Assembly: GCA_021817145.1 (NCBI GenBank)
Contig: JAKAVV010000013.1
Location: 3,141 to 67,140 of the forward strand
Direction of reading: 5' to 3'
From: a bacterium
GTDB lineage: Bacteria; Vulcanimicrobiota; JABDET01
DNA: 64,000 bases
The first letter of the stretch is position 1; every line of letters begins with the position of its first letter. This document shows, piece after piece, positions 24,423 to 45,121 of the stretch. A program made the translations under genes and the position numbers. The notes under the pieces are model-generated. The model did not search any database. It had not been told where the DNA came from and was given only the letters and a program-made list of their open reading frames with translations.

Positions 24423-26087
24423 TTACTTTTCAGACAGCCATGTTGTTTTTAACAGTTCAGCCACTTTAGTGGGCTTTTCTTTTGCTAACTGCTCCAGCTT
24501 TTCAGTTTGATTGGCTTGAACCGTTTTAGCAGGAGGATTGGAAACTTTTCCTGTCTTTTCATTCAACAGATCGCTGATATCTGAGACTGTTTCCGCAGGT
24601 CCTGGAGATAAGACCAACTGCCCTTTTTGAGACTGAACTTTCTGCTGGCGGAGGAAAAAGAAGATCCCGAGAATTAATCCGACTGACAGTAAACCTGCTA
24701 GAATTCGAAGGGCTTCACTGTCAGAAATGGGAGATGGAGCATTTTGACGGAAGAAACCGCCCTGATCCATTTGCTTGGTCAGTCTAGCAATCGCATGAGA
24801 TTGAAAAGGAAGGGTTCCAAAGCTCACTCTATCTCCACGCACAGAATCCATGCCAATCGCATTTTTGATAGAAGCTGTCAAGGTCTGGATAGAAGAAGGA
24901 CTTAAGGATTGATCTGCCAGAACAGCGGCTGTAATCCGAGTAACCTGCCCAGGAGTATAAATTGTTCTCTGATTGGTTTGATCAATCGCATTTTTTACCA
25001 GGGTTTGAGATTTTTCATAACGAGTACCTCGTTGGGCAGAGCCGCCATAAGGTTGAAACCCTAACTGCTGTGCTCCTCCCCCTTGAGAACCATGGCTTTT
25101 ATTATTAAACTTCTCGGTCACTTTCGATTTTTCAATTGGGAGACTGCCGCTGGTGTTCAAGCCTGTTCCAACTTTCTGAGATCGGGCTTCTGATTGATTC
25201 CAATCAATATGGACATTCACAGCAACAGCGTATTTCCCTCTTCCAAGCACAGGATTTAAAATCTGACGAATTTGGGACTCATACTGTTTTTCATAAGCTT
25301 CTTTTATTTTCAACATATTGTCAGGCATGCTTTCATTCTGGTAGTTCTTCAGCATCTGGCTCAGCAGTCTTCCATGAGTATCTGTAATCTGGACATTTTG
25401 CGGGTTTAAGTACGGCACAGATGCTGATACTAAATTTTGAATCGCTTTTGCTTCTTGAAGAGAGAACTGTTCTCCTGGCATCAATTTTAAAACAACAGCT
25501 GCTTTAGCCTGCTGTTTTTGATCGCTGAAAAAGTTATCTGTTTGCGAAGGGATAACCAAATTGACATTGGCATCTGCAATCCCATGGAATTGACGCAGAA
25601 CAGCAGTTAATTCTCTTTCAAGATAAAGCCGTTTATCCAGTGAAAACTGCTCAGAGGTTTCCCCTGTTGAAGGGGCTGGCATCTGAACAAAAGGCTGATG
25701 AGGAAGCCCTTCCTGAGTAAGAGTAGCAAGAGCCTGAACTTTCTGAGAAGGAGGAACTAAGATTTCATTCGTTCGAGAAGAAATTGTATAAGGGACTCCC
25801 ATTTGAGACAAAGCCTGAGTCACATCTTGAACATCTCTGGCGCTCAAAGGGATTTCATAAAGATTAACATAAGCTGTTTCTTTCTTAATCTGAGCAATTA
25901 AAAGAACAAGAATAAGAAGAACGGCCACAGCGCCACCTGCTGTCCATTTTTGTTTATTCGTCAATCTTTTCCAACTTTCCGCGATTTTCATATAAACCGG
26001 CTGCTTAGGCTGCATTCCAAACCTTCCTGCGGTTCCCCCTGGCTGACCTGTTCTGGTAGGCATTGTAGGTTGAGTTCCTGTAGGCAT
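24423..26087 (-). CDS. fliF: Flagellar M-ring protein FliF
   Basis: 554 aa. N-terminal TM segment followed by the conserved FliF periplasmic region (..YVNLYEIPLSARDVQDVTQALSQMGVPYTIS..) and a second TM near the C-terminus. Confidence 0.85.
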   Translation of the reverse strand: MPTGTQPTMPTRTGQPGGTAGRFGMQPKQPVYMKIAESWKRLTNKQKWTAGGAVAVLLILVLLIAQIKKETAYVNLYEIPLSARDVQDVTQALSQMGVPYTISSRTNEILVPPSQKVQALATLTQEGLPHQPFVQMPAPSTGETSEQFSLDKRLYLERELTAVLRQFHGIADANVNLVIPSQTDNFFSDQKQQAKAAVVLKLMPGEQFSLQEAKAIQNLVSASVPYLNPQNVQITDTHGRLLSQMLKNYQNESMPDNMLKIKEAYEKQYESQIRQILNPVLGRGKYAVAVNVHIDWNQSEARSQKVGTGLNTSGSLPIEKSKVTEKFNNKSHGSQGGGAQQLGFQPYGGSAQRGTRYEKSQTLVKNAIDQTNQRTIYTPGQVTRITAAVLADQSLSPSSIQTLTASIKNAIGMDSVRGDRVSFGTLPFQSHAIARLTKQMDQGGFFRQNAPSPISDSEALRILAGLLSVGLILGIFFFLRQQKVQSQKGQLVLSPGPAETVSDISDLLNEKTGKVSNPPAKTVQANQTEKLEQLAKEKPTKVAELLKTTWLSEK

Positions 26088-26115
26088 TTCTTTGTCCTCC
26101 TCTTAATTTAAAAGC

Positions 26116-26436
26116 TTAAAACTGCATCTGGAACAAACTGGTAGCTGCTGTCGTTACTTTTGAAGTAACAGCTGTTGCCAGTTCCAAAAGAATCTTTGCT
26201 TCTGCGGCAGAAGCCATAACACTGTGAAGATTATTTATCTTGCCAATCATGGCTTCCTGCAGCATAGAACCCGTATTGTTAATCGTATCATTCACTCCAC
26301 CGTAAAATTGCCCCAGGTAATTCTCAAAAGGCACACTTGCCGCAGATTGAGATCCCCCTGAACTTAAAAAATCTTTTGTGTCATCTAAATGACTTGAAAG
26401 GGGCTGAATTGCTTTAAAAGGAATTGGAGAATTCAT
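26116..26436 (-). CDS. fliE: Flagellar hook-basal body protein FliE
   Basis: 106-aa protein between flgC and fliF, with a C-terminal ..AEAKILLELATAVTSKVTTAATSLFQMQF helix typical of FliE. Confidence 0.55.
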   Translation of the reverse strand: MNSPIPFKAIQPLSSHLDDTKDFLSSGGSQSAASVPFENYLGQFYGGVNDTINNTGSMLQEAMIGKINNLHSVMASAAEAKILLELATAVTSKVTTAATSLFQMQF

Positions 26437-26446
26437 GATTTACCTC

Positions 26447-26911
26447 CTATGGCACCAGGCCCAAATCTTGCTGCTTCATATGTTTAGCAGCTTCAAAAAC
26501 AGCCACATTTGCTTGATAAGCTCTACTGGCTTGAATCATATTCGTCATCTCTGTAATGAGATCCACATTAGGCATAGCCACATAACCTTTTGAATTAGCC
26601 ATGGGGTTATGAGGATCATAAACCATTTTGGGAGGAGCAGGATCATTAACCACTGCAGCGACTTTAACCCCCTGTCCAATCCCTGAACCGCCACTGCCTG
26701 AACCAAAAGGGAGACCAAAAGCGGCAGGGACAAAAAAACTGTCGAAGGAAGGGGTCTTTTCCTGGAAAAGAGCTACTTTCTCTTGATAAGGTCCACCGCC
26801 AGGAGTTGAGGTTGTGTTAATATTGGCAATATTCTGCCCAATTAAATCCATCTCAGTTCTTTCAGCGCTCATTCCACTGGCACTGATATCAAAAGCGTTA
26901 AAAATTCCCAT
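26447..26911 (-). CDS. flgC: Flagellar basal-body rod protein FlgC
   Basis: N-terminal ..SGMSAERTEMDLIGQNIANINTT.. and C-terminal ..YVAMPNVDLITEMTNMIQASRAYQANV.. rod motifs. Confidence 0.9.
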   Translation of the reverse strand: MGIFNAFDISASGMSAERTEMDLIGQNIANINTTSTPGGGPYQEKVALFQEKTPSFDSFFVPAAFGLPFGSGSGGSGIGQGVKVAAVVNDPAPPKMVYDPHNPMANSKGYVAMPNVDLITEMTNMIQASRAYQANVAVFEAAKHMKQQDLGLVP

Positions 26912-26933
26912 TTTTCAATACCTCCTTAATTTA

Positions 26934-27371
26934 TTATGCAGGACCGCCTGTCAGTCCTTGAATTGGAATCTGTTCCCACTTTGGGGTAAATGACTTGGCT
27001 GCAATATCATACATAATTTGAACTTTTGCCAGATCAGCCATCTGCTGATTTAAGTTGACCTTTTTATTTTCCTCTACTTCAATCCTAGGATTAGAGGATG
27101 AATTCGGAATCATGGATTGGAATTCAGGAGAAAACCCGGTGAGATGAACTTGAAAAGGCTGATTTCCTCCCCCTCCTCCCAGACTGCTTTCAGCCAGCAA
27201 TCCTTTTAACTGGCTTTGGAAATCCACTTTTTCGGGATGATAATTCGGATTGTTAGCATTGGCAATATTATTGGCAATGGCTTTCTGCTCAAGAGAAAGT
27301 CCACTCATGGCATGTTCAAAATATCCGAACCAGGGTCCGAAAAAATTTGTGGCGTAACTCATGTTTGGCAC
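26934..27371 (-). CDS. flgB: Flagellar basal-body rod protein FlgB
   Basis: ..LEQKAIANNIANANNPNY.. rod N-terminal motif. First gene of the operon. GTG start at 27371, or ATG 9 nt downstream. Confidence 0.85.
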   Translation of the reverse strand: MPNMSYATNFFGPWFGYFEHAMSGLSLEQKAIANNIANANNPNYHPEKVDFQSQLKGLLAESSLGGGGGNQPFQVHLTGFSPEFQSMIPNSSSNPRIEVEENKKVNLNQQMADLAKVQIMYDIAAKSFTPKWEQIPIQGLTGGPA

Positions 27372-31063: not shown

Positions 31064-31867
31064 GTGAAAGTTCACACTTTAATATGCAAGAAGTCAATAA
31101 ACGGAATCGGGCTTCATACAGGAGCTTTCTCCGAGATCCAGTTTATTCCATCAGAAAAAAAAGGGATCCGATTTTGGAAAAATGACATCTGTATTCCTGT
31201 AAGCCCAAAATTTGTCATTGAAACAAAAAGAGGAGTCGTTTTAGGAAAGGATGGGGGGAAAATTCAAACGGTTGAGCACCTTTTAGCAGCCATTCGCTGG
31301 CTGGGAATAAGCAGCCTGGAAATTCAAGTAAATGGAGATGAGATTCCAATTCTGGATGGAAGTTCAGCGGGATGGATCAAGCTTTTAGAGCCATGCAGAA
31401 AGGAAACCCCTGAAGAGTTCGATGAACTCCCCCTTAAAAAGCCAATTCTTATCCAGGAAAAAGATGCTTATATCAAAGCAGCTCCTTCTACTTCATTCTC
31501 AATTCAATACACGATTGATTTTCCAGCGCCTATTGGGACACAAACCTGGAAAGGAAAAATCTCGTCGGACCTATTTAAAAACGATATCGCTCCTGCTCGA
31601 ACTTTTGGGTTTGCGGAAGAACTGGAATCTCTTCGGGAAAAAGGGCTGGCAGTGGGAGGGAATTTAGAGAATTGTGTCGTAATAAAAAGAGGTTTGATGA
31701 TAACACCTCTGCGCTTTAAAAATGAACCTGTTCGGCATAAGGTTTTGGATTTGCTTGGAGACCTTTCCCTTCTCTCCTGGATTCCAGTGGGAAAGTTTGA
31801 AGTTTTTAAGGGGGGGCATTTTCTGCATACCCTGATGTCAAAAGCGCTGGCGGATCAAGCATTGTGA
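31064..31867 (+). CDS. lpxC: UDP-3-O-acyl-N-acetylglucosamine deacetylase LpxC
   Basis: ..SINGIGLHTG.. N-terminal motif, and conserved His/Asp region ..EPVRHKVLDLLGDLSLL..GHFLHT.. GTG start. Confidence 0.9.
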   Translation: MKVHTLICKKSINGIGLHTGAFSEIQFIPSEKKGIRFWKNDICIPVSPKFVIETKRGVVLGKDGGKIQTVEHLLAAIRWLGISSLEIQVNGDEIPILDGSSAGWIKLLEPCRKETPEEFDELPLKKPILIQEKDAYIKAAPSTSFSIQYTIDFPAPIGTQTWKGKISSDLFKNDIAPARTFGFAEELESLREKGLAVGGNLENCVVIKRGLMITPLRFKNEPVRHKVLDLLGDLSLLSWIPVGKFEVFKGGHFLHTLMSKALADQAL

Positions 31868-32268
31868 GTTACCCTTTTACTTTTGTTGACAAAATTCTAC
31901 ATGAGGAAGAGGGAAAAATTGTCGGACTAAAGTGTGTTTCTTTCAGTGAGGCTTTTTTCAGCGGACACTTTCCCGGAAAGCCAGTAATGCCAGGGGTTTT
32001 AATTTTAGAAGGAATGCTCCAAACAGCAGAAATCCTCATTGAAAAGAAAATTGACAAAACCAAGATCCCAGTCTTAACTGGTTTTGAAAAAATAAGATTT
32101 AAGAAGCCTGTCTTACCTGGAGACAAAATCTATTATGAGATCGAGCTTTTAGACTGGGATGGAAAAACAGGAAAAATAAAAGCAGAAGCAAAAGTGGGGA
32201 ATGAAATTATGACTTCTGGATTTTTAACCTTAACCATTAAAGAAAAAATTGAAGCAATTTTGCAATAG
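31864..32268 (+). CDS. fabZ: 3-hydroxyacyl-ACP dehydratase FabZ
   Basis: ..FFSGHFPGKPVMPGVLILEGMLQ.. hot-dog dehydratase motif. 134 aa. Overlaps the lpxC stop. Confidence 0.9.
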   Translation: MSYPFTFVDKILHEEEGKIVGLKCVSFSEAFFSGHFPGKPVMPGVLILEGMLQTAEILIEKKIDKTKIPVLTGFEKIRFKKPVLPGDKIYYEIELLDWDGKTGKIKAEAKVGNEIMTSGFLTLTIKEKIEAILQ

Positions 32269-32279
32269 GAGGCATTGAA

Positions 32280-33284
32280 TTGACCGCAATTAAAGCAGCA
32301 GTTGTTGGAGTGGGACACATGGGGCGTCATCATGCCCGTATTTATTCTGAAATGCCTGGAGTAGAACTGACAGCAGTGGTGGACACGAACGAACTCGCTG
32401 CTCGAGACATCGCAAAAAAATACAACACGCAGCATTTTTTAGATTACCATTCACTGATTGGCAAGGTAGATGCCGTAAGCATTGCCACACCGACTTCTTT
32501 TCATTATCCGATCTCTATGGCATTACTGAATGCGGGAATTCATGTCTTGATTGAAAAACCGATCTCCTCAACTGTTAAAGAAGCTAAAACCTTGGTCCAG
32601 TTAGCAAAAATGAAAAACCTTATTTTACAGGTAGGCCATACAGAGAGATTTAATCCCGCCGTCATGTCGCTTAATGGTCTGGTAAAAAATCCGATTTTTA
32701 TTGAAACGCATCGAATGGGACCGCCAACCCGCAGGAATCTGGATGTTGGAGTTGTTTTTGAACTCATGATCCATGATATTGATATCCTCTTAAATCTGGT
32801 TCATTCTCCAATTGTAAAAATGCAGGGGTTCGGATTAAAAATATACTCCAATCACGAAGATATCGCTCAAGCTCAAATTCTTTTTGAAAACGGCTGCATG
32901 GCAAGCCTTTCAGCCAGTCGAATTAGTTCTGAAAAAGTAAGAAATCTTGAAATAACGCAAGAGGAAGGATTTCTGCGTCTGGATTACATAGAGCAGAATA
33001 TCATTCTGAGAAAACAAGTTTCCAGCAAATATATTTTTGATCAACCTAAAGCCACTTACAAAAGCGAGTTTCTCCTAGAACAGCCATTAATCCGCAAAGA
33101 TGAACCGCTCAGGCTGGAAATCGAACATTTTGTTGAGTGTCTGAGAGAACAAAAGCAGCCTGTTGTTTCTGGAGAGGATGGAAAAGCAGCCCTTGAGATC
33201 GGCAACCGAATTCTCGACAGTCTTATTCTAGTAAAAGCGGATGACAATCAGATGACACGAGAACTAATTGCTATGAGCCAATGA
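32280..33284 (+). CDS. Gfo/Idh/MocA-family NAD(P) oxidoreductase; candidate GnnA-like UDP-GlcNAc 3-dehydrogenase
   Basis: N-terminal Rossmann ..AAVVGVGHMGRHHARIY.. and the Gfo/Idh/MocA C-terminal domain. Sits between fabZ and lpxA. The GnnA role is inferred from family plus location only. Confidence 0.7.
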   Translation: MTAIKAAVVGVGHMGRHHARIYSEMPGVELTAVVDTNELAARDIAKKYNTQHFLDYHSLIGKVDAVSIATPTSFHYPISMALLNAGIHVLIEKPISSTVKEAKTLVQLAKMKNLILQVGHTERFNPAVMSLNGLVKNPIFIETHRMGPPTRRNLDVGVVFELMIHDIDILLNLVHSPIVKMQGFGLKIYSNHEDIAQAQILFENGCMASLSASRISSEKVRNLEITQEEGFLRLDYIEQNIILRKQVSSKYIFDQPKATYKSEFLLEQPLIRKDEPLRLEIEHFVECLREQKQPVVSGEDGKAALEIGNRILDSLILVKADDNQMTRELIAMSQ

Positions 33285-34123
33285 AAACTCACCCTACCTC
33301 TATTATTGATCCGACAGCCGAAATCGCTGAATCGGTTGTTATTGGTCCTTACTGCGTTATTGGAAAGAAAGTTAAAATTGGAGAAAAGACTGTTCTCCAC
33401 AGCCATGTGATTCTTGAAGAAGATACAATCATCGGAGAAAAGAACGAAATATTCCCGGGGGTTGTCATAGGAGCCCAACCTCAAGATTTAAGCTGGAAAA
33501 GAGAAGAATCAAAAGTAATCATTGGGAATGGCAACCTCATTCGCGAATACGTGACCATTCATAGAGGAAGCGGAGGGAAAAATACCTGTATTGGAAATGA
33601 AAACTATTTAATGGCTTATGTGCATGCGGGCCATAATGTCATGATAGGAAATGGGTGCATTATTGCCAATGCTGTCGGATTAGCTGGTTATGCGGAACTA
33701 GAAGACAAAGTCGTAGTAGGAGCTATGGCAGGAATTCACCAGTTTGTGAGAATTGGAACCATGGCTATGGTTGGCGGGTACTCCAAAAATGTAAAAGATG
33801 TGCCGCCTTACGTAAAGGTGGACGGAATCCCAGCCAGGGCTTTTGGCTTGAATCTTATTGCTTTAAAGCGAAATGAAATCCCTTCAGAACATCGAGAAAT
33901 TCTGAAAAAAGCGTATTATCTCGTCTATCGCTCGCGCCATAATCTTTCTCAGGCAATTAAAGCCATCGAAAATGAAGTCACTCTAATTCCTGAAATTCAA
34001 AAGTTTCTGCGGTTTTTGAGCAGCCCTTCAAAACAAGGAATTTTAAATCGGGAAGCTGCTCACAGCGAGATATCCGAAAACGGGAATGGAGCAAAACTGT
34101 TAGAAGTTGAAACTGCTCATTAG
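33281..34123 (+). CDS. lpxA: UDP-N-acetylglucosamine acyltransferase LpxA
   Basis: Left-handed beta-helix hexapeptide repeats with the LpxA C-terminal helical domain. 280 aa. Canonical position. Confidence 0.9.
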   Translation: MKTHPTSIIDPTAEIAESVVIGPYCVIGKKVKIGEKTVLHSHVILEEDTIIGEKNEIFPGVVIGAQPQDLSWKREESKVIIGNGNLIREYVTIHRGSGGKNTCIGNENYLMAYVHAGHNVMIGNGCIIANAVGLAGYAELEDKVVVGAMAGIHQFVRIGTMAMVGGYSKNVKDVPPYVKVDGIPARAFGLNLIALKRNEIPSEHREILKKAYYLVYRSRHNLSQAIKAIENEVTLIPEIQKFLRFLSSPSKQGILNREAAHSEISENGNGAKLLEVETAH

Positions 34124-35249
34124 CGCAGGGGATCTTTCTGGCGATTTTCACGGAAGCCTGCTGATTAAAGCTTTTCAAAAAAGAGAACCTAATATCGCTT
34201 TTGCGGTTATTGGCGGAGAACGATTAAAAGAATCAGGAGGAGAACTTTTAGCGGACAGTTCTTCATGGAGTTCTGTCGGAATCTTTGATTCCATAAAAAA
34301 AGCCCCTTCTGTTCTCCTTGCTTATCAGCTCCTTAAAAGAAAATTGAAATCCATAAAACTGGATGCTGCCATCCTTATTGACTGTCCTGCTTTTAATCTT
34401 CCATTAGCCCGATTTTTGTTTAAAAGTGGGGTTCCCTGTTACTACTTTTTCCCTCCATCTTCGTGGAAAAAAGACTTGAATCGAGCAAAACAGGTTGGGA
34501 AATGGATTAAATTAGTCATTGCCCCATTTCAAGAGACAGCATCTCTTTACAAGAAAGCTGGAATTCCAGTTTTCTTTTCAGGTCATCCTCTTATAGATAT
34601 CATCCCTGACATAAAACTAAATTCTACGATGCAGATTTTTAAAAAATTAAATTTAGACCCTGAAAAACCTGTCATAGGGCTTTTTCCTGGAAGTCGCGAT
34701 CAAGAGATTCACTATCTTCTTCCTGTTCTGCTGAAAACAGCGAAAAACCTTATAAAAAAACATCCTGATCTTCAATTTGCGCTTCCTGCCGCCTCTAAGA
34801 ATTTAAAGCGGCAAATTCTTTCGCAGATCGCAAAATTCAATCTCCCTCTTGTCGCAGCAGAAAATTCAAATTATGATATTTTGCGCATTTCAAAAGTTTT
34901 AATCCTGGCATCCGGAACCGCAACTTTAGAAGCAGCTCTTTACGAAAAGCCGATGATCATCATTTATAAACTCTCCCCTTTAACATGGAAACTGCAAAAA
35001 CCTTTTCTGAGAGGAGCTTCTTTTGCTGGACTTCCCAATCTCCTGGCAGGAAAAAGAATCGTCCCTGAGCTCATTCAAGACAGCGCAAATTCTGAAAATA
35101 TCTTCAATGAAATGAATAAAATATTAACAGATGAAAGTTATGCTGCAGCCATGAAAAAAGAGCTTCGCCAAATCCGCTCCTATTTAGGAACTCCAGGAGT
35201 CATGGAAAGAGTGGCAAATCTAATCTTGGAAACCTTAAGCCATGCGTGA
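34107..35249 (+). CDS. lpxB: Lipid-A-disaccharide synthase LpxB
   Basis: ..ISAGDLSGDFHG.. N-terminus, ..GLFPGSRDQEI.. and the C-terminal ..ASGTATLEAALYEKPMIIIY.. GT19 motifs. Confidence 0.8.
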   Translation: MKLLISAGDLSGDFHGSLLIKAFQKREPNIAFAVIGGERLKESGGELLADSSSWSSVGIFDSIKKAPSVLLAYQLLKRKLKSIKLDAAILIDCPAFNLPLARFLFKSGVPCYYFFPPSSWKKDLNRAKQVGKWIKLVIAPFQETASLYKKAGIPVFFSGHPLIDIIPDIKLNSTMQIFKKLNLDPEKPVIGLFPGSRDQEIHYLLPVLLKTAKNLIKKHPDLQFALPAASKNLKRQILSQIAKFNLPLVAAENSNYDILRISKVLILASGTATLEAALYEKPMIIIYKLSPLTWKLQKPFLRGASFAGLPNLLAGKRIVPELIQDSANSENIFNEMNKILTDESYAAAMKKELRQIRSYLGTPGVMERVANLILETLSHA

Positions 35250-35829
35250 GTTCTTGTTTCGATATAGAGGTTATACTATGGCTCCATTTGGGTTTTTTCT
35301 TTTAATTTTTGGAAAACCTGATATTGAAAGCTTTTTTTTGGGGCTTGGACTCTGTGTTTTAGGAGAACTGCTTCGAATCTGGGGGGTTGGGTATGCGGGA
35401 GCCTCAACTCGAAAAAGTTATCTTGAAGCAAAAAAACTCATCACTGCAGGACCTTTCCGTTATGTTAGACACCCTCTTTATCTTGGAAATGCGCTGATTG
35501 GTTTAGGAGGAACCATCATGGCTGTTGGAAGATATTCAGGGGGAAGCAGGGGGATTTTTTTTCTGATATGGCTTATTTTTTATGGTTCAGTCTATGCAAG
35601 TTTAATTTCTCTGGAAGAAGAGTTCTTAAAAAAAGAGTTTGGAGAAGTTTACCTTCAATATCGCCAGACTGTCCCCCCTATTTTACCGACTTTTATCTCT
35701 TTTCCCGCGCCGTCGGGAAAGTATGATTGGAATAAAGCCTGGAGCACTGAAATTCACACACTTGCGCCTCTTCTTGCGGTTATCCTCATCATGTTTATTA
35801 AAATCCATCTCTCATTCCCCCTGCCATGA
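35242..35829 (+). CDS. Isoprenylcysteine carboxyl methyltransferase (ICMT)/PEMT-family membrane methyltransferase
   Basis: ..RYVRHPLYLGNALIGLG.. ICMT signature, plus the C-terminal ..EEEFLKKEFGEVYLQY.. region. Confidence 0.65.
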   Translation: MREFLFRYRGYTMAPFGFFLLIFGKPDIESFFLGLGLCVLGELLRIWGVGYAGASTRKSYLEAKKLITAGPFRYVRHPLYLGNALIGLGGTIMAVGRYSGGSRGIFFLIWLIFYGSVYASLISLEEEFLKKEFGEVYLQYRQTVPPILPTFISFPAPSGKYDWNKAWSTEIHTLAPLLAVILIMFIKIHLSFPLP

Positions 35830-36554
35830 AACTCCATATTATCCACACCAATGATCTGCACAATCATTTTCCAGAAAAAATTATTCACCAGATCCTGCAA
35901 AAAGATTCCCTCCTCTTTGACTCAGGAGATGCGATTCAAGGAAGCAATTTGATTTATCACTTCAAAGAACCCATTCTGCATAAAATGAAAAAAATGGGAT
36001 ATACTGCGATGGCAATGGGAAACAGAGAATTTCATTATCTTCGCGGCTGTTTGAAAAAACGATTTCAAGAATCTTCCTTTCCTATTCTTGCCGCCAATCT
36101 TCTGGATTTAACAGGGAAAACAAAAATGCAAGATTCATTTATCTATCAGAAGAACGGAATTAAAATCGGAATTTTCGGATTAACTGTTCCACAGTATCCT
36201 GTTGGCTCCAAATGGGAAAAAGTAACAGGATGGAGGTTTCTTCCTGCTGTCGAATCCACTAAAAAAACGGTTAAAGCTCTGTATGATGCCAAAGTTGATC
36301 TCGTGGTATGTTTGTCCCATTCAGGATTTTCCACTGACTGCGCATTGGCTGAACAGGTTCCTGGGATTGATCTTATTTTAGGCGGTCACAGCCATACGGT
36401 TTTAAAAGAACCCCAACTTGTTCGCAGCTCCATTATTCTTCAAACAGGTTCACACGGGAGATTTATTGGCAGCTGGAATTTATCTTCAGACAGGCAGAAT
36501 GGGAAATACGAACCATGGAAAATTGAAGGGGGTCTTATTTCTGGGATTATATGA
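35826..36554 (+). CDS. Calcineurin-like metallophosphoesterase (5'-nucleotidase N-domain-like)
   Basis: Metallophosphatase motifs HTNDLH, DSGDAIQGS, GNREF, LSHSG, GGHSH. Located directly after lpxB. Confidence 0.7.
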   Translation: MKLHIIHTNDLHNHFPEKIIHQILQKDSLLFDSGDAIQGSNLIYHFKEPILHKMKKMGYTAMAMGNREFHYLRGCLKKRFQESSFPILAANLLDLTGKTKMQDSFIYQKNGIKIGIFGLTVPQYPVGSKWEKVTGWRFLPAVESTKKTVKALYDAKVDLVVCLSHSGFSTDCALAEQVPGIDLILGGHSHTVLKEPQLVRSSIILQTGSHGRFIGSWNLSSDRQNGKYEPWKIEGGLISGII

Positions 36555-37671
36555 TTTTTTATTTTTAAGCAATGGTTACGGGGAAGATGCGATCGCTTCA
36601 AAAATCGCAGAAACTGCACAGAATCAGCGAAGCTCAGCTGCATTCCCCTTAATTGGAAGAGGAAAAAGCTATGAAAAAAGAGGGGTTCCTGTCATTCATT
36701 CATTTCCCGAACTCCCTTCAGCAGGGGTCTCTTTTTACCAGGATTTTAAATCAGGGTTAATCAGGAGATTGAAGGACGAGTGGACCGCTCTTGAAAAAAT
36801 CGGAAAAGAGGCGCGATTCATCATTGCTGTAGGAGATATATTCCCTGTTTTTTTATCTCAATACTCCGCGCGCCGCCCAACTGTTTTTATCGGAACAGCG
36901 AAATCGCATTATGTTCAAGATTATAATTTTCTAGAAAGATCACTGTTAAAGAGAAACTTAAAAAACTTTGTTCGAGACAAGATCACTGCCGATGTTTTAA
37001 ACAAAAAAGATACAGCTGCAGATTTTGTCGGAAACCCAATGATGGATGAAACCCTTGCTGCCACCTGGAATTTTCCGGATTTTGATGGATTAACCCTTGC
37101 TCTTTTACCTGGCTCACGCTCAGACTGCGCAGAGAACTTTTCAATACAAGTAGAGGCACTGCAGCTCTTGCAGCAGACAAAAAGGGTAAAAATTAGAGGG
37201 ATCGCTCATCTCCCTCCATCTCTGGATCCCAAAATCTTAACCTCAAAATTGATTGGATGGGATGGAGTGTCAACAAACGAAGCTCCGTTTCTTTTAGGAG
37301 CTTACACCCAGGGGGAGGTTTTACTTCTACTGGCGCAAAATTCTCTTGGGGAGACCCTTAAAGCTTCTTCTCTTGTTTTAGGGCAGGCAGGGACAGGAAA
37401 TGAACAAGCAGCAGGAGCAGGGAAACCAGTTGTGGCTTTTGATTGGTCGTTTTCAAGAAATGGAAAGCTGTCCTGGTACAGATGGAGACAGAAGAAACTG
37501 CTAGGGGATGCCCTTGCAGTTGTTCGGGCTGATTCCAAACACCTGGCTGAAAAAACTTATCACATCTTAGGGGATCGAGATCTGTATCAAAAAATGTCTT
37601 ATGAAGGGAAAAATCGCATGGGTCCAGCAGGGGGTTCTCAAAAAATTGTCGAATATTTAAAGACTCTTTAG
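36499..37671 (+). CDS. LpxB-like (GT19-related) GT-B glycosyltransferase paralog; start uncertain
   Basis: ..LALLPGSRSDCAENFSIQ.. and ..LGQAGTGNEQAAGAGKPVVAF.. echo the LpxB PGSR and C-terminal motifs. The tracker ORF begins at 36418, overlapping the upstream gene by 137 nt. Internal Met at 36499 chosen provisionally. Confidence 0.4.
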   Translation: MGNTNHGKLKGVLFLGLYDFLFLSNGYGEDAIASKIAETAQNQRSSAAFPLIGRGKSYEKRGVPVIHSFPELPSAGVSFYQDFKSGLIRRLKDEWTALEKIGKEARFIIAVGDIFPVFLSQYSARRPTVFIGTAKSHYVQDYNFLERSLLKRNLKNFVRDKITADVLNKKDTAADFVGNPMMDETLAATWNFPDFDGLTLALLPGSRSDCAENFSIQVEALQLLQQTKRVKIRGIAHLPPSLDPKILTSKLIGWDGVSTNEAPFLLGAYTQGEVLLLLAQNSLGETLKASSLVLGQAGTGNEQAAGAGKPVVAFDWSFSRNGKLSWYRWRQKKLLGDALAVVRADSKHLAEKTYHILGDRDLYQKMSYEGKNRMGPAGGSQKIVEYLKTL

Positions 37672-37711: not shown

Positions 37712-39433
37712 ATGCCAATGAATTTTCAAGAGTTGACTTTTTCACAGACTGTTTTGGAAAATGTGGGAGAAGCTATTATTGTTGTTGACTCAAATGGGCA
37801 CATCCAATTTATCAATCAATCAGGAGAAAAGCTGTTCGGATATTCTCTTCAAGAAATAGCGGGAAAAAACTTTAAAATACTATTTCACGAACCTCTGCTG
37901 GGATGGCATCAAGAGTACCTTGACATTCTCCAGTCCGACAGTTTCAGAAAACCGACTTCGCGAGAATCTATAGGAATGCGCAAAGATGGGACCACCCTTC
38001 CTCTCGATTTAATTTTAAGCAAAATGTCGTCGCAGAGCATTCCTTTTTTAATTATCAGCGCCAGAAACGCGCAAAAAAGAAAGGTGATAACAGACCAGGT
38101 AAAAGATCAAGCCCGAAGAGATCCTTTAACCGGGCTGTCAAGCAAAGATTTTTTTATTGAGCGGCTTAATACGATTCTGAACAGCGCAAAAAGAATCAGT
38201 CAAATGGTTGGAGTGATTTGCTGCAATTTGGACAGATTCAGTTTAATTAACAATACCCTTGGAAGGAATATTGGGGATGAGTTCCTTGAGAAAGTGGGAA
38301 AGCGGATTAAAAACTGCTCAAGAGAAGGGGATGTCATCTCCCGCTTTGCGGGAGATGAATTTTATATTATGCTTCCTTACTTAAAATCTCCGAATGATTC
38401 GGTAGGGTTTTCTAACCGAATCATTGATTCTTTGAGATATCCATTCATCATTAAAGAGAGAGAACTTTACATTACAGCCAGCCTTGGGATTTCTATTTTC
38501 CCGACCCTTGCTTCTGACTCAGACTCCTTAATTTCAAATGCGAATATGGCAATGCGCGAAGCAAAAAAACATGGGAGAAATTGCTGGAAACTGTTTTCAA
38601 TTGAGTCCAATATCAAAACTCTTGACTCTCTCATGATTTATTCTCAGCTTCATGGAGCCATTAAGCGCAGGGAGTTGTCTTTAAATTTTCAACCCATTGT
38701 AGAGGCTAAAACCTTAACTTTAAAAGGAGCGGAAGCTCTGGCTCGATGGAACCATCCTGAACTGGGAAAAATCCCCCCCTCTGATTTTATTCCTGTGGCT
38801 GAGGAAACAGGATTTATTGATACGATTGGAAAGTTCGTCATGATGAGCGCATGCGCCCAAAGCAAAGCCTGGCAGAACCAGAAACTCCCTCTTATCCCCA
38901 TATCAGTCAATGTCTCCACACCTCAATTTAAAAGTGAAAGATTTGTAGATGTGGTCTCTGAAATACTAGAAGCAAGCGAGCTGAATCCTGAACTCCTCCA
39001 CCTGGAAGTCACAGAAAGTTTAATGATGGAAAATGTGGAAGAATCTATTTCAAAACTCAAAGTATTAAGGGACCACGGAATTAAATTGTGCATTGATGAT
39101 TTTGGGACAGGGTACTCTTCTTTTCAATATTTAAAGCGATTTCCTGTTGATATTTTAAAAATTGACCAATCTTTTGTGAGAGATGTCGTTTCCAGCGCTG
39201 GAGACGCAACCATTGTTTCAGCCATGATTGATGTCGCCCACCGCTTAAAACTAGAAACAACAGCAGAAGGGGTTGAAACAAGGGAACAAATGCTTTTTCT
39301 GCGCGCCCAGGGGTGCGATTATCTTCAAGGATACCTTTTTGACAAGCCTAAACCTCCTGAAGAATTCGCTAGAATCCTTTCCAATCATTATTCTGACCAG
39401 TGGAAAGCTCTTCTGCAAGAGGAAGCATCTTGA
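37712..39433 (+). CDS. PAS-GGDEF-EAL c-di-GMP signalling protein (GGDEF degenerate: AGDEF)
   Basis: N-terminal PAS (..VGEAIIVVDSNGHIQFINQSGEKLFGY..), RFAGDEFYIML in the A-site position, and EAL-domain motifs EALARW, DDFGTGYSS, EGVET. Confidence 0.85.
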   Translation: MPMNFQELTFSQTVLENVGEAIIVVDSNGHIQFINQSGEKLFGYSLQEIAGKNFKILFHEPLLGWHQEYLDILQSDSFRKPTSRESIGMRKDGTTLPLDLILSKMSSQSIPFLIISARNAQKRKVITDQVKDQARRDPLTGLSSKDFFIERLNTILNSAKRISQMVGVICCNLDRFSLINNTLGRNIGDEFLEKVGKRIKNCSREGDVISRFAGDEFYIMLPYLKSPNDSVGFSNRIIDSLRYPFIIKERELYITASLGISIFPTLASDSDSLISNANMAMREAKKHGRNCWKLFSIESNIKTLDSLMIYSQLHGAIKRRELSLNFQPIVEAKTLTLKGAEALARWNHPELGKIPPSDFIPVAEETGFIDTIGKFVMMSACAQSKAWQNQKLPLIPISVNVSTPQFKSERFVDVVSEILEASELNPELLHLEVTESLMMENVEESISKLKVLRDHGIKLCIDDFGTGYSSFQYLKRFPVDILKIDQSFVRDVVSSAGDATIVSAMIDVAHRLKLETTAEGVETREQMLFLRAQGCDYLQGYLFDKPKPPEEFARILSNHYSDQWKALLQEEAS

Positions 39434-39891
39434 AAAAGCTGTTTAAAAAAAAAGGATATACTTTAATCGAGCTCATGATTGTCATCGCCATTATCGGGAT
39501 TATGGCTTCCATCATGATCCCGAATTTTGTGAGAGCAAGAGCAGAAGCTGAGATGTCAGCTTGTGAATCCAATGAACGGAACCTGGCAAATGCCCTTGAC
39601 ATGTATGCTGTTGATAATAACGGCAACTATCCAACCTCAAGCGGTGGACCTGGAGGAATGACTCTTCTGACTCCTAATTATATGCCAGGGCTCCCTGTTT
39701 GTCCAACAGATCAGTCTCAATATTATTATGAAACCATCAGCACGCCAATATTTAAATTTACGATCTCCTGCCAGGGTGATTTTACCATGCTTTTAGGTCC
39801 GACCAATGGAGGTCCACCAGGATCCCCCCATTACCCAAAATATTCACTGACTGGTGGAACCAATGGCGGCACAGGAAATATTCATCCCTGA
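39430..39891 (+). CDS. Type IV pilin-like protein (prepilin N-terminal cleavage/methylation domain)
   Basis: In-frame TTG at 39430 gives (M)KKLFKKKG|YTLIELMIVIAIIGIMASI, the classic class-III signal with Gly-1 and Glu+5. GAGGAAG RBS 6 nt upstream. The tracker's longer ORF from 39400 is unlikely. Confidence 0.7.
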   Translation: MKKLFKKKGYTLIELMIVIAIIGIMASIMIPNFVRARAEAEMSACESNERNLANALDMYAVDNNGNYPTSSGGPGGMTLLTPNYMPGLPVCPTDQSQYYYETISTPIFKFTISCQGDFTMLLGPTNGGPPGSPHYPKYSLTGGTNGGTGNIHP

Positions 39892-41211: not shown

Positions 41212-42231
41212 ATGATTCTCTTTTTATTAACTTTTTCGCTCTGTTTTATTTTTACACAGTTGTGGCTTGTTATTTCACATCATTATTTACTCTATCAGAA
41301 AATACGAGAAGAAGGGCCGAAAGAACACTTAGAAAAAAAATCTACGGTTCCAACAATGGGTGGAATCGCTGTAATGCTCAGCATTCTTCTGGCAGTTCCA
41401 ACCATGATAAGATGGCATCCTGCCTCTCAAAAAAGTCATTTGTCTTTATCCATAATACATCTACTCCCTTTGTTATTTGCTTTTTTTGCAAGCGGACTCC
41501 TTGGGCTGGCAGATGACTTAATGAAATTCTTCAGAGGGAAAAACCTGGGGTTAAAAGGAAGATACAAGATTGCTGGAGAGTGCTTGATAGGAGCTGTGCT
41601 CTGGTATCTTCTTTTCAAAGAACATCTGCTTAACTCTTACAATTCCATGATTTTGAAGTGTTTAATTTTCATTTTCGGGAAAACTCATGCTGAAATTTTA
41701 GTTGGTCTCTCTGTTTTCCTTGTCATGCTGCTGGTCGTGGTTGTGGTGTTTGCGACAACCAGCGCCGTCAATTTTACGGATGGACTGGATGGGCTTGCCT
41801 GCGGTGTTTCCATTTTCCCGCTCCTCTATTTTCTGTATTTAGGGTTTATCCAGCATCAATTATCCGCTTATCATTTTACGTTATCCCTCCTGGGAGCCTG
41901 CGCTGCGTTCTTATGGTTTAACTCTTATCCTGCTAAAATTTTCATGGGAGATTCTGGATCGCAGGCTTTAGGAGGAGCTCTTGCTGCTCTTGCATTCCAG
42001 GTCCAGAGAGTTTTCTGGCTGCCTGTTGTCGGAGGGGTTTTTGTCATTGAGACAGCTTCGATCATCATTCAGGTAACCTATTTTAAACTAACAGGAGGGA
42101 AGAGGATCTTCAAAATGTCCCCTCTTCATCATCATTTTGAGCTGTCAGGAATCCATGAAAATCAAATCACTATTCGATTCTGGATCCTCTCTATGCTTTT
42201 GTGTTTGATTGCGACAGCTGCAGGGCATTAA
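41212..42231 (+). CDS. mraY: Phospho-N-acetylmuramoyl-pentapeptide transferase MraY
   Basis: ..KSTVPTMGGIAVM.., ..NFTDGLDGLA.., ..MGDSGSQALGG.. MraY/WecA motifs. First gene of the dcw block. Confidence 0.85.
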   Translation: MILFLLTFSLCFIFTQLWLVISHHYLLYQKIREEGPKEHLEKKSTVPTMGGIAVMLSILLAVPTMIRWHPASQKSHLSLSIIHLLPLLFAFFASGLLGLADDLMKFFRGKNLGLKGRYKIAGECLIGAVLWYLLFKEHLLNSYNSMILKCLIFIFGKTHAEILVGLSVFLVMLLVVVVVFATTSAVNFTDGLDGLACGVSIFPLLYFLYLGFIQHQLSAYHFTLSLLGACAAFLWFNSYPAKIFMGDSGSQALGGALAALAFQVQRVFWLPVVGGVFVIETASIIIQVTYFKLTGGKRIFKMSPLHHHFELSGIHENQITIRFWILSMLLCLIATAAGH

Positions 42232-42351
42232 GCTCCGCTTCCTGATATTGGAAAGATGTTCTGCTCTCCTATAGGGGAGTTATTTTATCCGATATTCATG
42301 TGGAGGAATACTCTATCAATATAAAGAACCACATCTTAGAGGAAAAGGAGA

Positions 42352-42600
42352 ATGTCTCTTGCTCGATCCAAAATAGAAGAAAAAAATCTTTTCAATTATC
42401 GTGATTATTTTCTGCTCCCTGACAATGGAAAACGATACCAGATTATCGAAGGAGAACTGTTCATGACTCCACCCCCTGGATTTTCTCATCAACGATCAGT
42501 TACTCAATTAAGTAAGATCCTTGCGAATTATCTAGATAAGAATCCGATTGGAGAAGTGATCTGCGCTCCTTATGCTGTGGGTTTAATTTACTCCACTTGA
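42352..42600 (+). pseudogene. Truncated Uma2-family (DUF820) putative endonuclease fragment
   Basis: ..YRDYFLLPDNGKRYQIIEGELFMTPPPGFSHQRSVTQLSKILANYL..IGEVICAPYAV.. matches the N-terminal half of Uma2 proteins (about 190 aa full length); it terminates at 82 aa. Confidence 0.55.
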
Positions 42601-42695
42601 GCATATAAATTGGTTATATAAGGATTTCAGAAATAGACGATATACTCTTTGACAGAATCTCAAAAATTACCGTTCTCGGATTAGGAAAAAGCGGG

Positions 42696-43985
42696 ATGGC
42701 AGCAGTCCGCTTTTTTAAACGGAAAGGGGTCGAAATTTTTGCGAGCGATTTTGGGAATCCCCCTGACAAAAGCTTGCAAGAGCTGCAGAATCTTGAAGTT
42801 TCTTACGAAACCGGAAAGCACACGGAAAAGATTTATGCCACTGACTTAATCCTTGTAAGTCCAGGCATTGATGCCTATCATCCGATTTTGATTGAAGCGA
42901 GAAAGAGAAAAATTCCGATATGCCCTGAAATTGAAGCTGCTTACCACTTCTGCCCCTCCCCTATTATCGCCATTACAGGAACCAATGGGAAATCGTCGGT
43001 CGCCGCTCTTACAGCGCACCTGATGAAACAAGCTGGATTAGATTCTAGACTGGTAGGAAATATTGGGATCCCGCTCCTGGAAGAAATTCCCACTTTAACC
43101 CCCCAAAGCTGGGCAGTTATGGAGGTTAGCTCCTTTCAATTGGAAACCATCACCCATTTCCATCCCAAGATCTCTTGCATTTTAAACATCACTCAAGACC
43201 ACTTAAACCGTCATCCTGATCTGAACGCTTATATTCGAGCAAAAGCGCGAATTATGGAAAATCAAACAGAAAAAGATACTGCTGTCTTAAACAAAGATGA
43301 CCCTACAACAAGATCCCTTGCTGCAAGAACAAAAGCTGAGATTTTATGGTTTGGAGAAGGGGAAATCTATTTAAATGAGAATAAAATTATTAGGGAACAG
43401 GGGGGGGCAAAAATAGTATTAGCGCAGTTTGAGAAATTTCAATTGCCAGGGAAGCATAATCTGAACAACCTGACTGCTGCTGCTGCTGTCTGCCATGCGG
43501 CAGGATTAACTTCTCCCATAAAAGGAATTGAAACTTTTACAGGGCTTCCTCACCGCCTCGAATTTGTAAAGGTCATACAAGAAATTGAATTCTGGGATGA
43601 TTCGAAAGCGACAAATCCCAATTCTGCGGCAAGCGCGCTGAAGAGTTTCAATAGCCCGATCATTCTCATAGCAGGAGGAAGCGAGAAAGGGTTGGACTTC
43701 CATCCATTGACTGAAGCTGCAGTTGGCAAAGTTAAAGCTCTCATTGCATTAGGAAAAGAAAATTCGAAGCTGCTGCAAGCTTTTTCATTCCTTGAAAAAG
43801 AAGCGGTCTTTGAAACAACAGAGATGAACCAGGCTGTTTTTGAAGCGTTTAAAAGAGCGCAGTCGGGAGAGATCGTTTTGTTGAGCCCTGCTAATGCTAG
43901 TTTTGATCTCTTTCATTCCGCTGAGGAAAGAGGAGATCAGTTTAAAAACAGCGTTGAAAAACTTTCGCGAGGAGAATGGCGGTGA
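42696..43985 (+). CDS. murD: UDP-N-acetylmuramoylalanine--D-glutamate ligase MurD (annotated from first ATG; true start probably non-canonical upstream)
   Basis: Mur ligase motifs (..GTNGKSS.., C-terminal domain). The in-frame upstream sequence encodes ..ISKITVLGLGKSG-M.., so the Rossmann GxGxxG lies before the first ATG. No ATG/GTG/TTG occurs in frame back to the stop at 42606. Confidence 0.8.
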   Translation: MAAVRFFKRKGVEIFASDFGNPPDKSLQELQNLEVSYETGKHTEKIYATDLILVSPGIDAYHPILIEARKRKIPICPEIEAAYHFCPSPIIAITGTNGKSSVAALTAHLMKQAGLDSRLVGNIGIPLLEEIPTLTPQSWAVMEVSSFQLETITHFHPKISCILNITQDHLNRHPDLNAYIRAKARIMENQTEKDTAVLNKDDPTTRSLAARTKAEILWFGEGEIYLNENKIIREQGGAKIVLAQFEKFQLPGKHNLNNLTAAAAVCHAAGLTSPIKGIETFTGLPHRLEFVKVIQEIEFWDDSKATNPNSAASALKSFNSPIILIAGGSEKGLDFHPLTEAAVGKVKALIALGKENSKLLQAFSFLEKEAVFETTEMNQAVFEAFKRAQSGEIVLLSPANASFDLFHSAEERGDQFKNSVEKLSRGEWR

Positions 43986-45121
43986 AATATAAAAAACCTG
44001 ACATGGTTCTTCTTTTTTTAATTTTTCTGCTTCTGGCAGTAGGATTGATCATGGTTTTCAGTTCAAGCACAGGAATCGCTCTGGCAATCACAAGAAAAGA
44101 CCCAAATCCTTACTATTTTTTAGAAAGACAGATCGTCTGGGTTATTCTTGGGTTTGCGGGACTGCTGGCAGCTTATCATCTTGACCTGAATTTAATCAAA
44201 AAATACATCCCATGGCTTTATATGACCTGTATCGGCATGTTGCTGCTGGTCCTGGTTCCAGGGATTGGAATGGATGTTTCAGGAGCAAGGCGGTGGTTTC
44301 ACTTTTCATTTGTCAATTTACAGCCTGCCGAGTTTTCAAAGGTCGTGTTAATTTTATTCATTTCCTGGTTCATCACTCGAAAAGGGGGGCTCTCCACCTC
44401 CTTATGGAAAACCATTTTTCCCCTATTAGTTTCAATTCTGCCTTTAATCTATCTCGTTTATAAAGAACCCGATTTCGGCACAGCGTTTCTCATGTTCACA
44501 ACAGCTCTTGGAACGATTTTTGTTTCAGGAATTCAACTGAAAGATATGGCGCTTTTAAGTTCAGCATCCCTTCCTGCTGGAATTTTTTATATGCTGAAAG
44601 CTAAGTATCGCCTGAAACGACTCCAGGGATTCTTCAATCCATGGAAACATCCCTATACTTCAGGATATCATATTATTCAATCCCTTATTGCGGTAGGATC
44701 AGGTGGATGGTTTGGCGTTGGACTTGGCGACTCCAGACAGAAATTTTTTTATCTTCCGGATCAGCACACAGATTATATTTTTGCGATTCTTGGGGAAGAA
44801 GGGGGGATCCTTGCCACTCTTTTTGTTCTGCTCTTATTCTTATTCGTTGCAGCAAGAGGATTGAATATTGCCTTAAAACAAACGGATCCATTTAAAAGAA
44901 TATTAGCTGCAGGGCTCACCATTTCGATTGTGAGCCAGGCTCTTATCAATATGGCGATGGTCATCCATCTTCTTCCTCCAGTTGGAATTCCTCTCCCTTT
45001 TTTAAGTTATGGGGGCTCCAGTTTAATGACCTGTCTTATCATGATCGGACTTTTGTTAAATCTTTCCCGAATCCCTATTCATAAAAAAATTGAAATGACC
45101 ACTTCTCTTGAGAGCGCATGA
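43976..45121 (+). CDS. ftsW: SEDS-family peptidoglycan glycosyltransferase FtsW
   Basis: 10 TM segments and conserved SEDS motifs (..GARRWF.., ..PDQHTDYIFAILGEE..). Position between murD and murG. Confidence 0.85.
   Translation: MAVKYKKPDMVLLFLIFLLLAVGLIMVFSSSTGIALAITRKDPNPYYFLERQIVWVILGFAGLLAAYHLDLNLIKKYIPWLYMTCIGMLLLVLVPGIGMDVSGARRWFHFSFVNLQPAEFSKVVLILFISWFITRKGGLSTSLWKTIFPLLVSILPLIYLVYKEPDFGTAFLMFTTALGTIFVSGIQLKDMALLSSASLPAGIFYMLKAKYRLKRLQGFFNPWKHPYTSGYHIIQSLIAVGSGGWFGVGLGDSRQKFFYLPDQHTDYIFAILGEEGGILATLFVLLLFLFVAARGLNIALKQTDPFKRILAAGLTISIVSQALINMAMVIHLLPPVGIPLPFLSYGGSSLMTCLIMIGLLLNLSRIPIHKKIEMTTSLESA

Follow-up and report, generated by a model that had tools for sequence, protein, structure and literature searches.

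Endotoxin cannot be made unless lipid X is formed, and this step is a drug target. The literature up to February 2026 lists only three enzyme classes for it, LpxH, LpxI and LpxG (PMC13018214), and surveys describe bacteria that carry lpxA, lpxC, lpxD and lpxB but no known hydrolase (PMC3087551). According to the structure paper on P. aeruginosa LpxH, a motif His to Arg exchange occurs only in LpxH, where Arg80 is joined by a bidentate salt bridge to the 1-phosphate of lipid X (Okada et al., PMC5016852); Opiyo et al. likewise single out this substitution. Also described are GnnA of Acidithiobacillus ferrooxidans, a UDP-GlcNAc 3-dehydrogenase with solved structure 7BVJ (bioRxiv 10.1101/2024.11.05.622173), and LmtA of Leptospira (TIGR04571), a lipid A 1-phosphate methyltransferase; reports of a methylated lipid A phosphate are confined to Leptospira to date (PMC10248169). 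Here we compare with these systems an eight-gene cluster at positions 31064 to 37671 of a 64,000-nucleotide stretch from an uncultured, soil- or gut-type bacterium of the Vulcanimicrobiota (assembly GCA_021817145.1, contig JAKAVV010000013.1, positions 3,141 to 67,140; hereafter the window). The cluster encodes a small metallophosphoesterase (MPE), which is our main subject.

We propose that the eight genes act as one operon that serves a modified Raetz pathway. In it, MPE would form lipid X, a GnnA-type dehydrogenase would supply a 3-amino sugar, an ICMT-family enzyme would methylate a lipid A phosphate and a TIGR03492 glycosyltransferase would act after LpxB. The probability of this reading as a whole is roughly 0.55. 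For MPE itself, a candidate role as a non-orthologous UDP-2,3-diacylglucosamine pyrophosphatase seems to us somewhat better than an even chance on its sequence and context. A preliminary description of the DNA had given the gene order from lpxC to an LpxB-like gene, and all eight open reading frames (ORFs) were verified on the + strand at the coordinates it had assigned (lengths in amino acids, aa):

31064-31867, + strand: lpxC, UDP-3-O-acyl-GlcNAc deacetylase, 267 aa (PF03331 E 1e-75; TIGR00325 238 bits, cut-off 187)
31864-32268, + strand: fabZ, 3-hydroxyacyl-acyl carrier protein (ACP) dehydratase, 134 aa (NF000582 124 bits, cut-off 113)
32280-33284, + strand: GnnA-like Gfo/Idh/MocA oxidoreductase, probable UDP-GlcNAc 3-dehydrogenase, 334 aa (PF01408 E 1e-31)
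33281-34123, + strand: lpxA, acyl-ACP--UDP-GlcNAc acyltransferase, 280 aa (NF003657 322 bits, cut-off 226; PDB LpxA matches up to 205 bits)
34107-35249, + strand: lpxB, lipid A disaccharide synthase, 380 aa (PF02684 E 3e-73; TIGR00215 233 bits, cut-off 190)
35242-35829, + strand: ICMT/PEMT-family membrane methyltransferase, 195 aa, or 183 aa from the gene-caller start at 35278 (PF04140 E 2e-9, PF04191 E 1e-8)
35826-36554, + strand: MPE, 242 aa (PF00149)
36499-37671, + strand: TIGR03492 'lipid-A-disaccharide synthase-related' protein, 390 aa from the gene-caller start, the ORF opening at 36418 (TIGR03492 236.4 bits, cut-off 219.2; no Pfam match)

LpxC, FabZ, LpxA and LpxB are canonical. Since adjoining genes overlap by 4-56 nt (4 nt between lpxC and fabZ) or are separated by at most 12 nt, we regard the region as one operon. 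Identical operon proteins recur on at least 24 independent contigs from metagenomes and metagenome-assembled genomes (MAGs) in NCBI, JGI, ENA and Logan, which excludes an assembly artefact. The MAGs that carry them are labelled 'Candidatus Eremiobacteraeota bacterium' at NCBI, apart from one 'Firmicutes bacterium'.

MPE is a short 5'-nucleotidase domain with an LpxH-type arginine

MPE has its homologues among the N-terminal catalytic domains of 5'-nucleotidases, UshA, YfkN and SoxB (NCBIfam E 1e-34 to 1e-21), and its family profile matched the N-terminal domains of CD73 and UshA in the PDB (E 1e-30). An AlphaFold2 (AF2) model of high predicted quality (pLDDT 95, pTM 0.92) gave the same answer when searched with Foldseek, with a TMq of 0.78-0.85 to YunD, YfkN, CD73 and UshA. 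The protein begins MKLHIIHTNDLH, so that the first beta-strand and the DxH motif start from residue 2; no signal peptide, membrane helix or hydrophobic leader was found in the sequence or the model, and the absence of the first two indicates that MPE is cytoplasmic. The C-terminal substrate-binding domain (5_nucleotid_C) is also missing: PF00149 is the sole match in the 242 aa, while solved proteins of the CD73/UshA type have about 520-550 aa. UshA-type enzymes, as their NCBIfam family names state, split UDP-sugars into UMP and sugar-1-phosphate.

These matches bear on the proposal of the preliminary description that MPE is a UDP-2,3-diacylglucosamine hydrolase analogous to chlamydial LpxG (CT461). 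Both proteins are calcineurin-like phosphoesterases and would catalyse the same reaction. LpxG, however, has an N-terminal transmembrane helix and a GNHD motif (PMC4807358), both absent from MPE, which reads GNRE, and every significant family or structure match of MPE is to the N-terminal domain of 5'-nucleotidases, UshA, SoxB or YfkN. We therefore give kinship with LpxG next to no weight and place MPE on the 5'-nucleotidase/UshA branch. The other half of that proposal fared better: with its Arg motif, its position after lpxB and its mutual exclusion with LpxI, described below, MPE is a good candidate for the hydrolase.

Across 36 homologues, down to 38% identity, residues D10, H12, D35, N66, R67, H70, H165, H188 and H190 are invariant. 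The metal-ligand motifs of metallophosphoesterases are thus intact (D10, H12, D35, N66, H165, H188 and H190). Motif III reads GNREFH where 5'-nucleotidases read GNHEF(D/N), R67 being aligned to the His of GNHEF in CD73; the same motif of E. coli LpxH reads HGNRDF. We infer that Arg at this place fits a pyrophosphate, from which a phosphate departs, and does not fit a monoester, in which a proton must be donated to the departing alcohol. A neighbour-joining tree was built from 95 domains of the fetched loci, and its 68 Arg-type sequences all fell into a single clade (198 of 200 bootstraps). They are all short, at about 240 aa, and are now annotated as 5'-nucleotidase or cyclic-nucleotide phosphodiesterase. 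The remaining 27, of His type, come from Bacillota, Bacteroidota and others and are canonical nucleotidases; most are long and have two domains, and the few short ones are from Bacteroidota.

Membership of MPE in the LpxH family itself was rejected: no LpxH model (TIGR01854/PRK05340) matched at E<=10 in the NCBIfam scan, and an hhalign comparison of the MPE family profile with E. coli LpxH aligned no more than the GHxH region (25 columns, E 0.09). The AF2 model has a compact core without a large insertion, and LpxH is not in its top 50 Foldseek matches. Judged by its sequence, MPE is a UshA-type domain that has converged on the active-site signature of LpxH.

MPE and LpxI exclude each other in TIGR03492 clusters

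To place MPE in its genomic context, clusters were sampled in three ways: one genome of each species was scanned, contigs were looked up, and metagenomes were scanned as well. The order (lpxD)-lpxC-fabZ-(DegT-GnnA)-lpxA-lpxB-(LpxB-like-2)-(ICMT)-MPE-TIGR03492, with MPE just after lpxB, was found in 39 distinct clusters from MAGs labelled Eremiobacterota/Vulcanimicrobiota, Xenobia, 'Melainabacteria', 'Chloroflexi' and others. One lineage carries MPE and TIGR03492 as a single 650-aa polypeptide in the same operon slot (P0139, P0157), and this was the only such fusion cluster in a HMMER pass over 1.84 billion representatives. Arg-type MPE genes of Armatimonadota are not beside lpx genes. In 9 of 18 loci they directly follow kdsD (SIS+CBS) and/or a kdsC-like HAD phosphatase gene, sometimes with kdsB, and in five loci they precede ArnT-like PMT_2 glycosyltransferases. 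All three contexts (after lpxB, in the fusion and with the genes for Kdo, 3-deoxy-D-manno-octulosonate) concern lipopolysaccharide (LPS). As a further observation, one or two large PMT_2 (ArnT-like, GT-C) membrane glycosyltransferase genes follow MPE in L041, L043, L048 and L050, and an Acyl_transf_3 gene precedes it in L050, which suggests that genes for lipid A or core decoration share the operon.

We then compared the occurrence of MPE with that of LpxI. Among 116 distinct TIGR03492 loci, 47 have both lpxA and lpxB in view and form the basis of the counts. MPE occurs without LpxI in 39 of these clusters and LpxI without MPE in seven (L099, L100, L103, L104, L112, L115 and L131), where it sits between lpxA and lpxB; a single cluster (L117) has neither, and none has both. 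When only loci sampled via TIGR03492 are counted, six have MPE only, seven LpxI only, one neither and none both (Fisher p 0.005, a value that may overstate the support, as few independent evolutionary events may lie behind the exclusivity). In L117 a gene with DUF362 and 4Fe-4S ferredoxin domains (5018-6172) directly follows lpxB, in the place of the missing hydrolase. A DUF362 gene is also found near the L009 cluster; its presence in L117 may be a coincidence or may reflect another substitute.

No lpxD, lpxH, lpxI, lpxK, waaA, kdsB or DegT gene was detected in the 64-kb window by tblastn and by Pfam annotation of the contigs that span it. For the window, this bears out the observation of the preliminary description that neither lpxH nor lpxI is seen. 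The tblastn queries were E. coli LpxH, LpxK and WaaA together with LpxI, LpxK and KdsB from related loci, searched against the window and about 175 loci. With these queries no locus gave a homologue of LpxH, LpxK or WaaA, except for the LpxK::TIGR03492 fusion of the LpxI-type locus L099.

The TIGR03492 protein is a probable glycosyltransferase

The last gene had been described as an LpxB-like paralog. The likeness is real but remote: neither the Pfam LpxB model nor TIGR00215 matched at E<=0.01, and the protein belongs to a separate family, TIGR03492, whose match spans residues 48-415 of the long ORF. Its AF2 model (pLDDT 92.5) has a GT-B fold, and Foldseek returned only generic GT-B matches (UDP-GlcNAc 2-epimerases, CalG, WaaA) that do not indicate the donor sugar. 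When the active-site residues of E. coli LpxB were compared, TIGR03492 was invariant in the pyrophosphate loop (PGSR) and in Gly-Thr of the ribose motif; the Glu that comes after Gly-Thr has a MurG-like spacing. An invariant VGD, at most three residues away from where LpxB has its catalytic Asp98, aligns with that residue only after a 3-residue shift. Because the nucleotide-binding residues of LpxB are conserved, the TIGR03492 protein probably binds a UDP-sugar and is catalytically active.

Since canonical LpxB constantly accompanies it, TIGR03492 does not simply replace LpxB. Very often MsbA and a third LpxB-like family come before the gene, and a sugar-1-phosphate nucleotidyltransferase sometimes does. 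Its fusion partners in other lineages are LpxK (P0379, where the gene order is msbA-lpxK::T3492-kdsB), Wzy_C O-antigen-ligase-like domains and GT2 glycosyltransferases; these fusions suggest that it acts after LpxB, at the transition from lipid A to core. Two TIGR03492 homologues of about 395 aa (P0191, P0224) bear the JGI name 'tetraacyldisaccharide 4'-kinase', probably an annotation carried over from LpxK::TIGR03492 fusions such as P0379. The third family, LpxB-like-2, is mostly about 410-470 aa long (327 aa in L099; PF02684 48 bits) and has no copy in the window. It was seen in L011, L025, L057, L062, L094, L099-L101 and many of L102-L181, and LpxB-like-2 / MsbA / TIGR03492 is a common module.

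The close association of MPE and TIGR03492 raises a different explanation, namely that the two form a two-part enzyme for a step after LpxB and that lipid X comes from an unlinked LpxH, LpxI or other hydrolase. In one variant the GT-B protein, which could help present the substrate to MPE, holds a UDP-linked substrate in place of the lost C-terminal domain of 5'-nucleotidases, and MPE cuts it; in the other, MPE trims a nucleotide or pyrophosphate product. Such an arrangement would fit the invariable position of MPE immediately upstream of TIGR03492 in lpx-linked clusters, the 56-nt overlap of the two genes in the window, the fusion in P0139 and P0157 and the fact that MPE lacks the second, nucleotide-holding domain that 5'-nucleotidases normally need. 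The partners are nevertheless separable, as each occurs without the other: at least 67 distinct loci, and also LpxI-type clusters, have TIGR03492 but no MPE, and Armatimonadota MPE lies beside Kdo genes without an adjacent TIGR03492. Moreover, MPE is missing exactly where LpxI is present, and TIGR03492 fuses as readily with LpxK, Wzy_C and GT2. We consider a two-part enzyme quite unlikely. As to the overlap itself, a frameshifted fusion was ruled out, the stop being identical on at least 24 independent contigs and the genes being separate in relatives.

A GnnA-like oxidoreductase lies between fabZ and lpxA

The preliminary description had likened the oxidoreductase to GnnA. The top PDB matches were GnnA structures (7BVJ/7BVK, E 6e-45, 157 bits), the runner-up Gfo/Idh/MocA structure scoring 76 bits, and the top NCBIfam match was NF040723, the equivalog for archaeal UDP-GlcNAc 3-dehydrogenase, at 267 bits with its cut-off of 450 not reached. 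Orthologues with 47-70% identity lie between fabZ and lpxA in 12 distinct related clusters, and this position is invariant. In five of the 12 (L009, L101, L133, L134 and L137) a DegT aminotransferase gene is directly beside the oxidoreductase gene, again between fabZ and lpxA, which is the GnnB/GnnA arrangement. The oxidoreductase copies of these five clusters show 47-60% identity, the window protein being 47% identical to the copies of L009 and L101. Altogether, homology and context make the putative GnnA assignment well supported, though incomplete.

The window has no GnnB aminotransferase, as had been noted before. A search seeded with the L009 DegT protein returned thousands of matches of 50-57% identity across phyla, none tied to this MAG. 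The oxidoreductase could instead be a different dehydrogenase, of the nucleotide-sugar or inositol type, with a role in core or O-antigen synthesis, leaving an ordinary GlcN-GlcN lipid A backbone. The lack of a DegT gene in 64 kb would agree with that, as would its absence within 10 kb in seven of the 12 related clusters, the NF040723 score of 267 and an LpxA that scores 189 bits to the GlcNAc3N-specific LpxA of Leptospira versus 205 to ordinary LpxA. On the other hand, GnnA scores twice any other Gfo/Idh/MocA protein among solved relatives, the gene is constantly between fabZ and lpxA, and five clusters have DegT beside an orthologue of 47-60% identity at precisely this place. We judge a dehydrogenase other than GnnA to be unlikely, if far from negligible.

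An LmtA-like methyltransferase precedes MPE

PF04140 and PF04191 confirm that the protein encoded between lpxB and MPE belongs to the general ICMT/PEMT family. It had been considered to have no precedent in lipid A synthesis; this view does not hold, since its top NCBIfam match is TIGR04571 (LmtA_Leptospira), though at 55.6 bits and far below the cut-off of 325. The gene has the same position in L011, L012, L092, L094 and L101, among others, and is present in nine of the 12 GnnA-like clusters and in two LpxI-type clusters.

The gene touches on whether MPE might be a cytoplasmic lipid A phosphatase, removing the 1- or 4'-phosphate to give a phosphate-poor lipid A as in cyanobacteria. The order lpxD-lpxC-fabZ-lpxA-lpxB is of the cyanobacterial/Dictyoglomi type, in which LPS lacks phosphate and Kdo (PMC3087551), and neither lpxK nor waaA was found near these clusters. 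However, the general-acid His of a monoesterase is replaced in MPE by Arg, which would suit a phosphate leaving group and hence a pyrophosphate, as in LpxH; an LmtA-like methyltransferase encoded ahead of MPE would need the phosphate retained; and the exclusivity with LpxI would be left unexplained. A phosphatase is thus highly improbable.

A proposed modified Raetz pathway

We return to MPE as the candidate lipid X-forming enzyme. In the pathway that we propose, a GnnA-type UDP-GlcNAc 3-dehydrogenase would route a 3-amino sugar, 2,3-diamino-2,3-dideoxyglucose (GlcN3N), into lipid A, and its partner aminotransferase would have to lie outside the window. MPE would take the step of LpxH, LpxI or LpxG, cutting at the alpha-phosphate of UDP-2,3-diacylglucosamine, or of the GlcN3N analogue, so that UMP is released and LpxB obtains its acceptor, lipid X. 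Its origin would be a catalytic domain of the UshA/5'-nucleotidase type from which the signal peptide and the C-terminal substrate-binding domain were lost and in which Arg took the place of the general-acid His; Arg67 would hold the departing sugar-1-phosphate as the LpxH Arg holds the 1-phosphate of lipid X. The reaction would amount to UshA chemistry performed in the cytoplasm on a lipid-linked UDP-sugar. The ICMT-like enzyme would methylate a lipid A phosphate, like LmtA in Leptospira, and the TIGR03492 glycosyltransferase would act after LpxB, probably by attaching a sugar to the lipid A disaccharide.

Several points weigh against this pathway. Knowledge of the Arg-type MPE family comes from sequences and models, and the MPE model has no obvious LpxH-like lid domain for acyl chains. 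The search for lpxH and lpxI covered the window, lpxH is usually not clustered with lpx genes, and a canonical copy may lie elsewhere in the genome. Few independent events may underlie the MPE/LpxI exclusivity, and L117 is a TIGR03492 cluster with neither gene. Given its strict pairing and fusion with TIGR03492, MPE could serve that protein rather than LpxB. The GnnA-like and LmtA-like proteins score far under their curated cut-offs (267 against 450 and 55.6 against 325 bits), and no DegT/GnnB gene was found within 10 kb in seven of the 12 GnnA-like clusters, the window and six others.

A broader proposal, more tentative and in our estimate a little short of even odds, is that the clade of short Arg-type 5'-nucleotidases was recruited independently and makes up a fourth class of UDP-2,3-diacylglucosamine pyrophosphatase in Eremiobacterota, Armatimonadota and related diderms, with the LpxH His to Arg change acquired by convergence, and that TIGR03492 is an unrecognised glycosyltransferase that takes the step following the lipid A disaccharide, in place of WaaA-type core initiation or in addition to it. 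A literature search returned nothing on TIGR03492, on Eremiobacterota lipid A or on a new UDP-diacylglucosamine hydrolase. The candidate novelty is a new enzyme family for an already known reaction. If true, the two roles together would close gaps in what has been described since 2010 as the 'four-enzyme' lipid A pathway of bacteria without lpxH, lpxK and waaA. A fourth class would put a name to the gene missing from whole phyla of uncultured diderms. It would also provide a clear example of an active site evolved by convergence (His to Arg) and a better annotation for proteins now labelled 5'-nucleotidase or cyclic-nucleotide phosphodiesterase. The operon further predicts a GlcN3N backbone and a methylated phosphate outside spirochaetes, and would tie the widespread, uncharacterised TIGR03492 family to the lipid A-to-core transition.

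Surroundings of the operon

Promoter and terminator scans gave counts not above those of shuffled sequence. Some 24 kb from the lpx operon, the window encodes an MsbA-like ABC transporter (580 aa) that shares 34% identity with E. coli MsbA (E 2e-83) and 44% with the MsbA of the L099 lipid A cluster, and is probably the organism's lipid A flippase. The division and cell wall (dcw) cluster also lies downstream. DUF881 and DUF1290, both encoded in it, are typical of division clusters of the Firmicutes and Actinobacteria type, which fits a diderm on the Terrabacteria side. The neighbouring features are:

7-4791, + strand: complex-I/[NiFe]-hydrogenase-like module with a fused 30/49-kDa subunit, Oxidored_q6 and Proton_antipo_M
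9559-27371, - strand: large flagellar cluster upstream of the operon, flhA/flhB to fliE/flgBC
37712-39433, + strand: PAS-GGDEF-EAL cyclic di-GMP protein, starting 40 nt past the operon
39400-39891, + strand: type IV pilin-like (N_methyl) protein, the next gene
41212-52854, + strand: dcw cluster, mraY-(Uma2 nuclease-like ORF)-murD-ftsW-murG-murC-murB-ftsQ-DUF881-DUF1290-ftsA-ftsZ
59063-59890, - strand: sulfotransferase-family gene (PF00685/PF13469), near a two-component system and CsrA
61852-63594, + strand: MsbA-like ABC transporter

Comparison with known systems

Among characterized proteins, UshA and the 5'-nucleotidases (the N-terminal domains of CD73, YfkN and SoxB) are the true homologues of the MPE catalytic domain, and their conversion of UDP-sugars to UMP and sugar-1-phosphate fits the proposed chemistry. 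Unlike them, MPE has no signal peptide and no C-terminal nucleotide-binding domain, carries Arg...His (GNREFH) in place of their His-Asp pair (GNHEFD), and belongs to a separate clade (198/200) embedded in lipid A and Kdo gene clusters. LpxH of beta- and gamma-proteobacteria resembles MPE in other ways: it is a small (about 240 aa) cytoplasmic member of the metallophosphoesterase superfamily with the dinuclear-metal motifs DxH, GD, GNx[DE], H and GHxH, it has Arg for His in motif III (GNRD, against GNRE in MPE), and the reaction proposed for MPE is its own. Yet there is no sequence relationship beyond these motifs, the MPE fold being that of a 5'-nucleotidase N-terminal domain; the lid insertion of LpxH is not evident in MPE, and the MPE gene is clustered with lpxB whereas lpxH usually is not.

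LpxI, the DUF1009 UDP-2,3-diacylglucosamine hydrolase, is encoded like MPE in the lpxA-lpxB cluster, fills the same gap in the pathway and has a complementary distribution. Its fold and mechanism are unrelated, and its gene lies between lpxA and lpxB while that of MPE follows lpxB. LpxG of Chlamydia is likewise a calcineurin-like phosphoesterase that replaces LpxH, but it is membrane-anchored and keeps GNHD, and its orthologues have been reported in Chlamydia species.

TIGR03492 shares with LpxB (GT19) a GT-B fold, the PGSR loop and the Thr/Glu ribose-binding motif. It differs in being missed by the Pfam LpxB model, in the MurG-like spacing of its Glu and in the uncertain position of its catalytic base. 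Like WaaA (GT30), whose gene often does the same, it adjoins or is fused with LpxK, MsbA and KdsB. GnnA, which occurs in A. ferrooxidans and Leptospira, is the nearest solved relative of the window oxidoreductase, and LmtA of Leptospira is, like the window enzyme, an ICMT-family methyltransferase tied to lipid A, there by function and here by its neighbouring genes. The GnnA/GnnB and LmtA systems differ from the window in phylum, in the absence of gnnB from the window and in the low scores of the window proteins under the curated cut-offs. By analogy with these systems, the GnnA-like and LmtA-like genes together predict a Leptospira-like lipid A with a GlcN3N backbone and a methylated phosphate.

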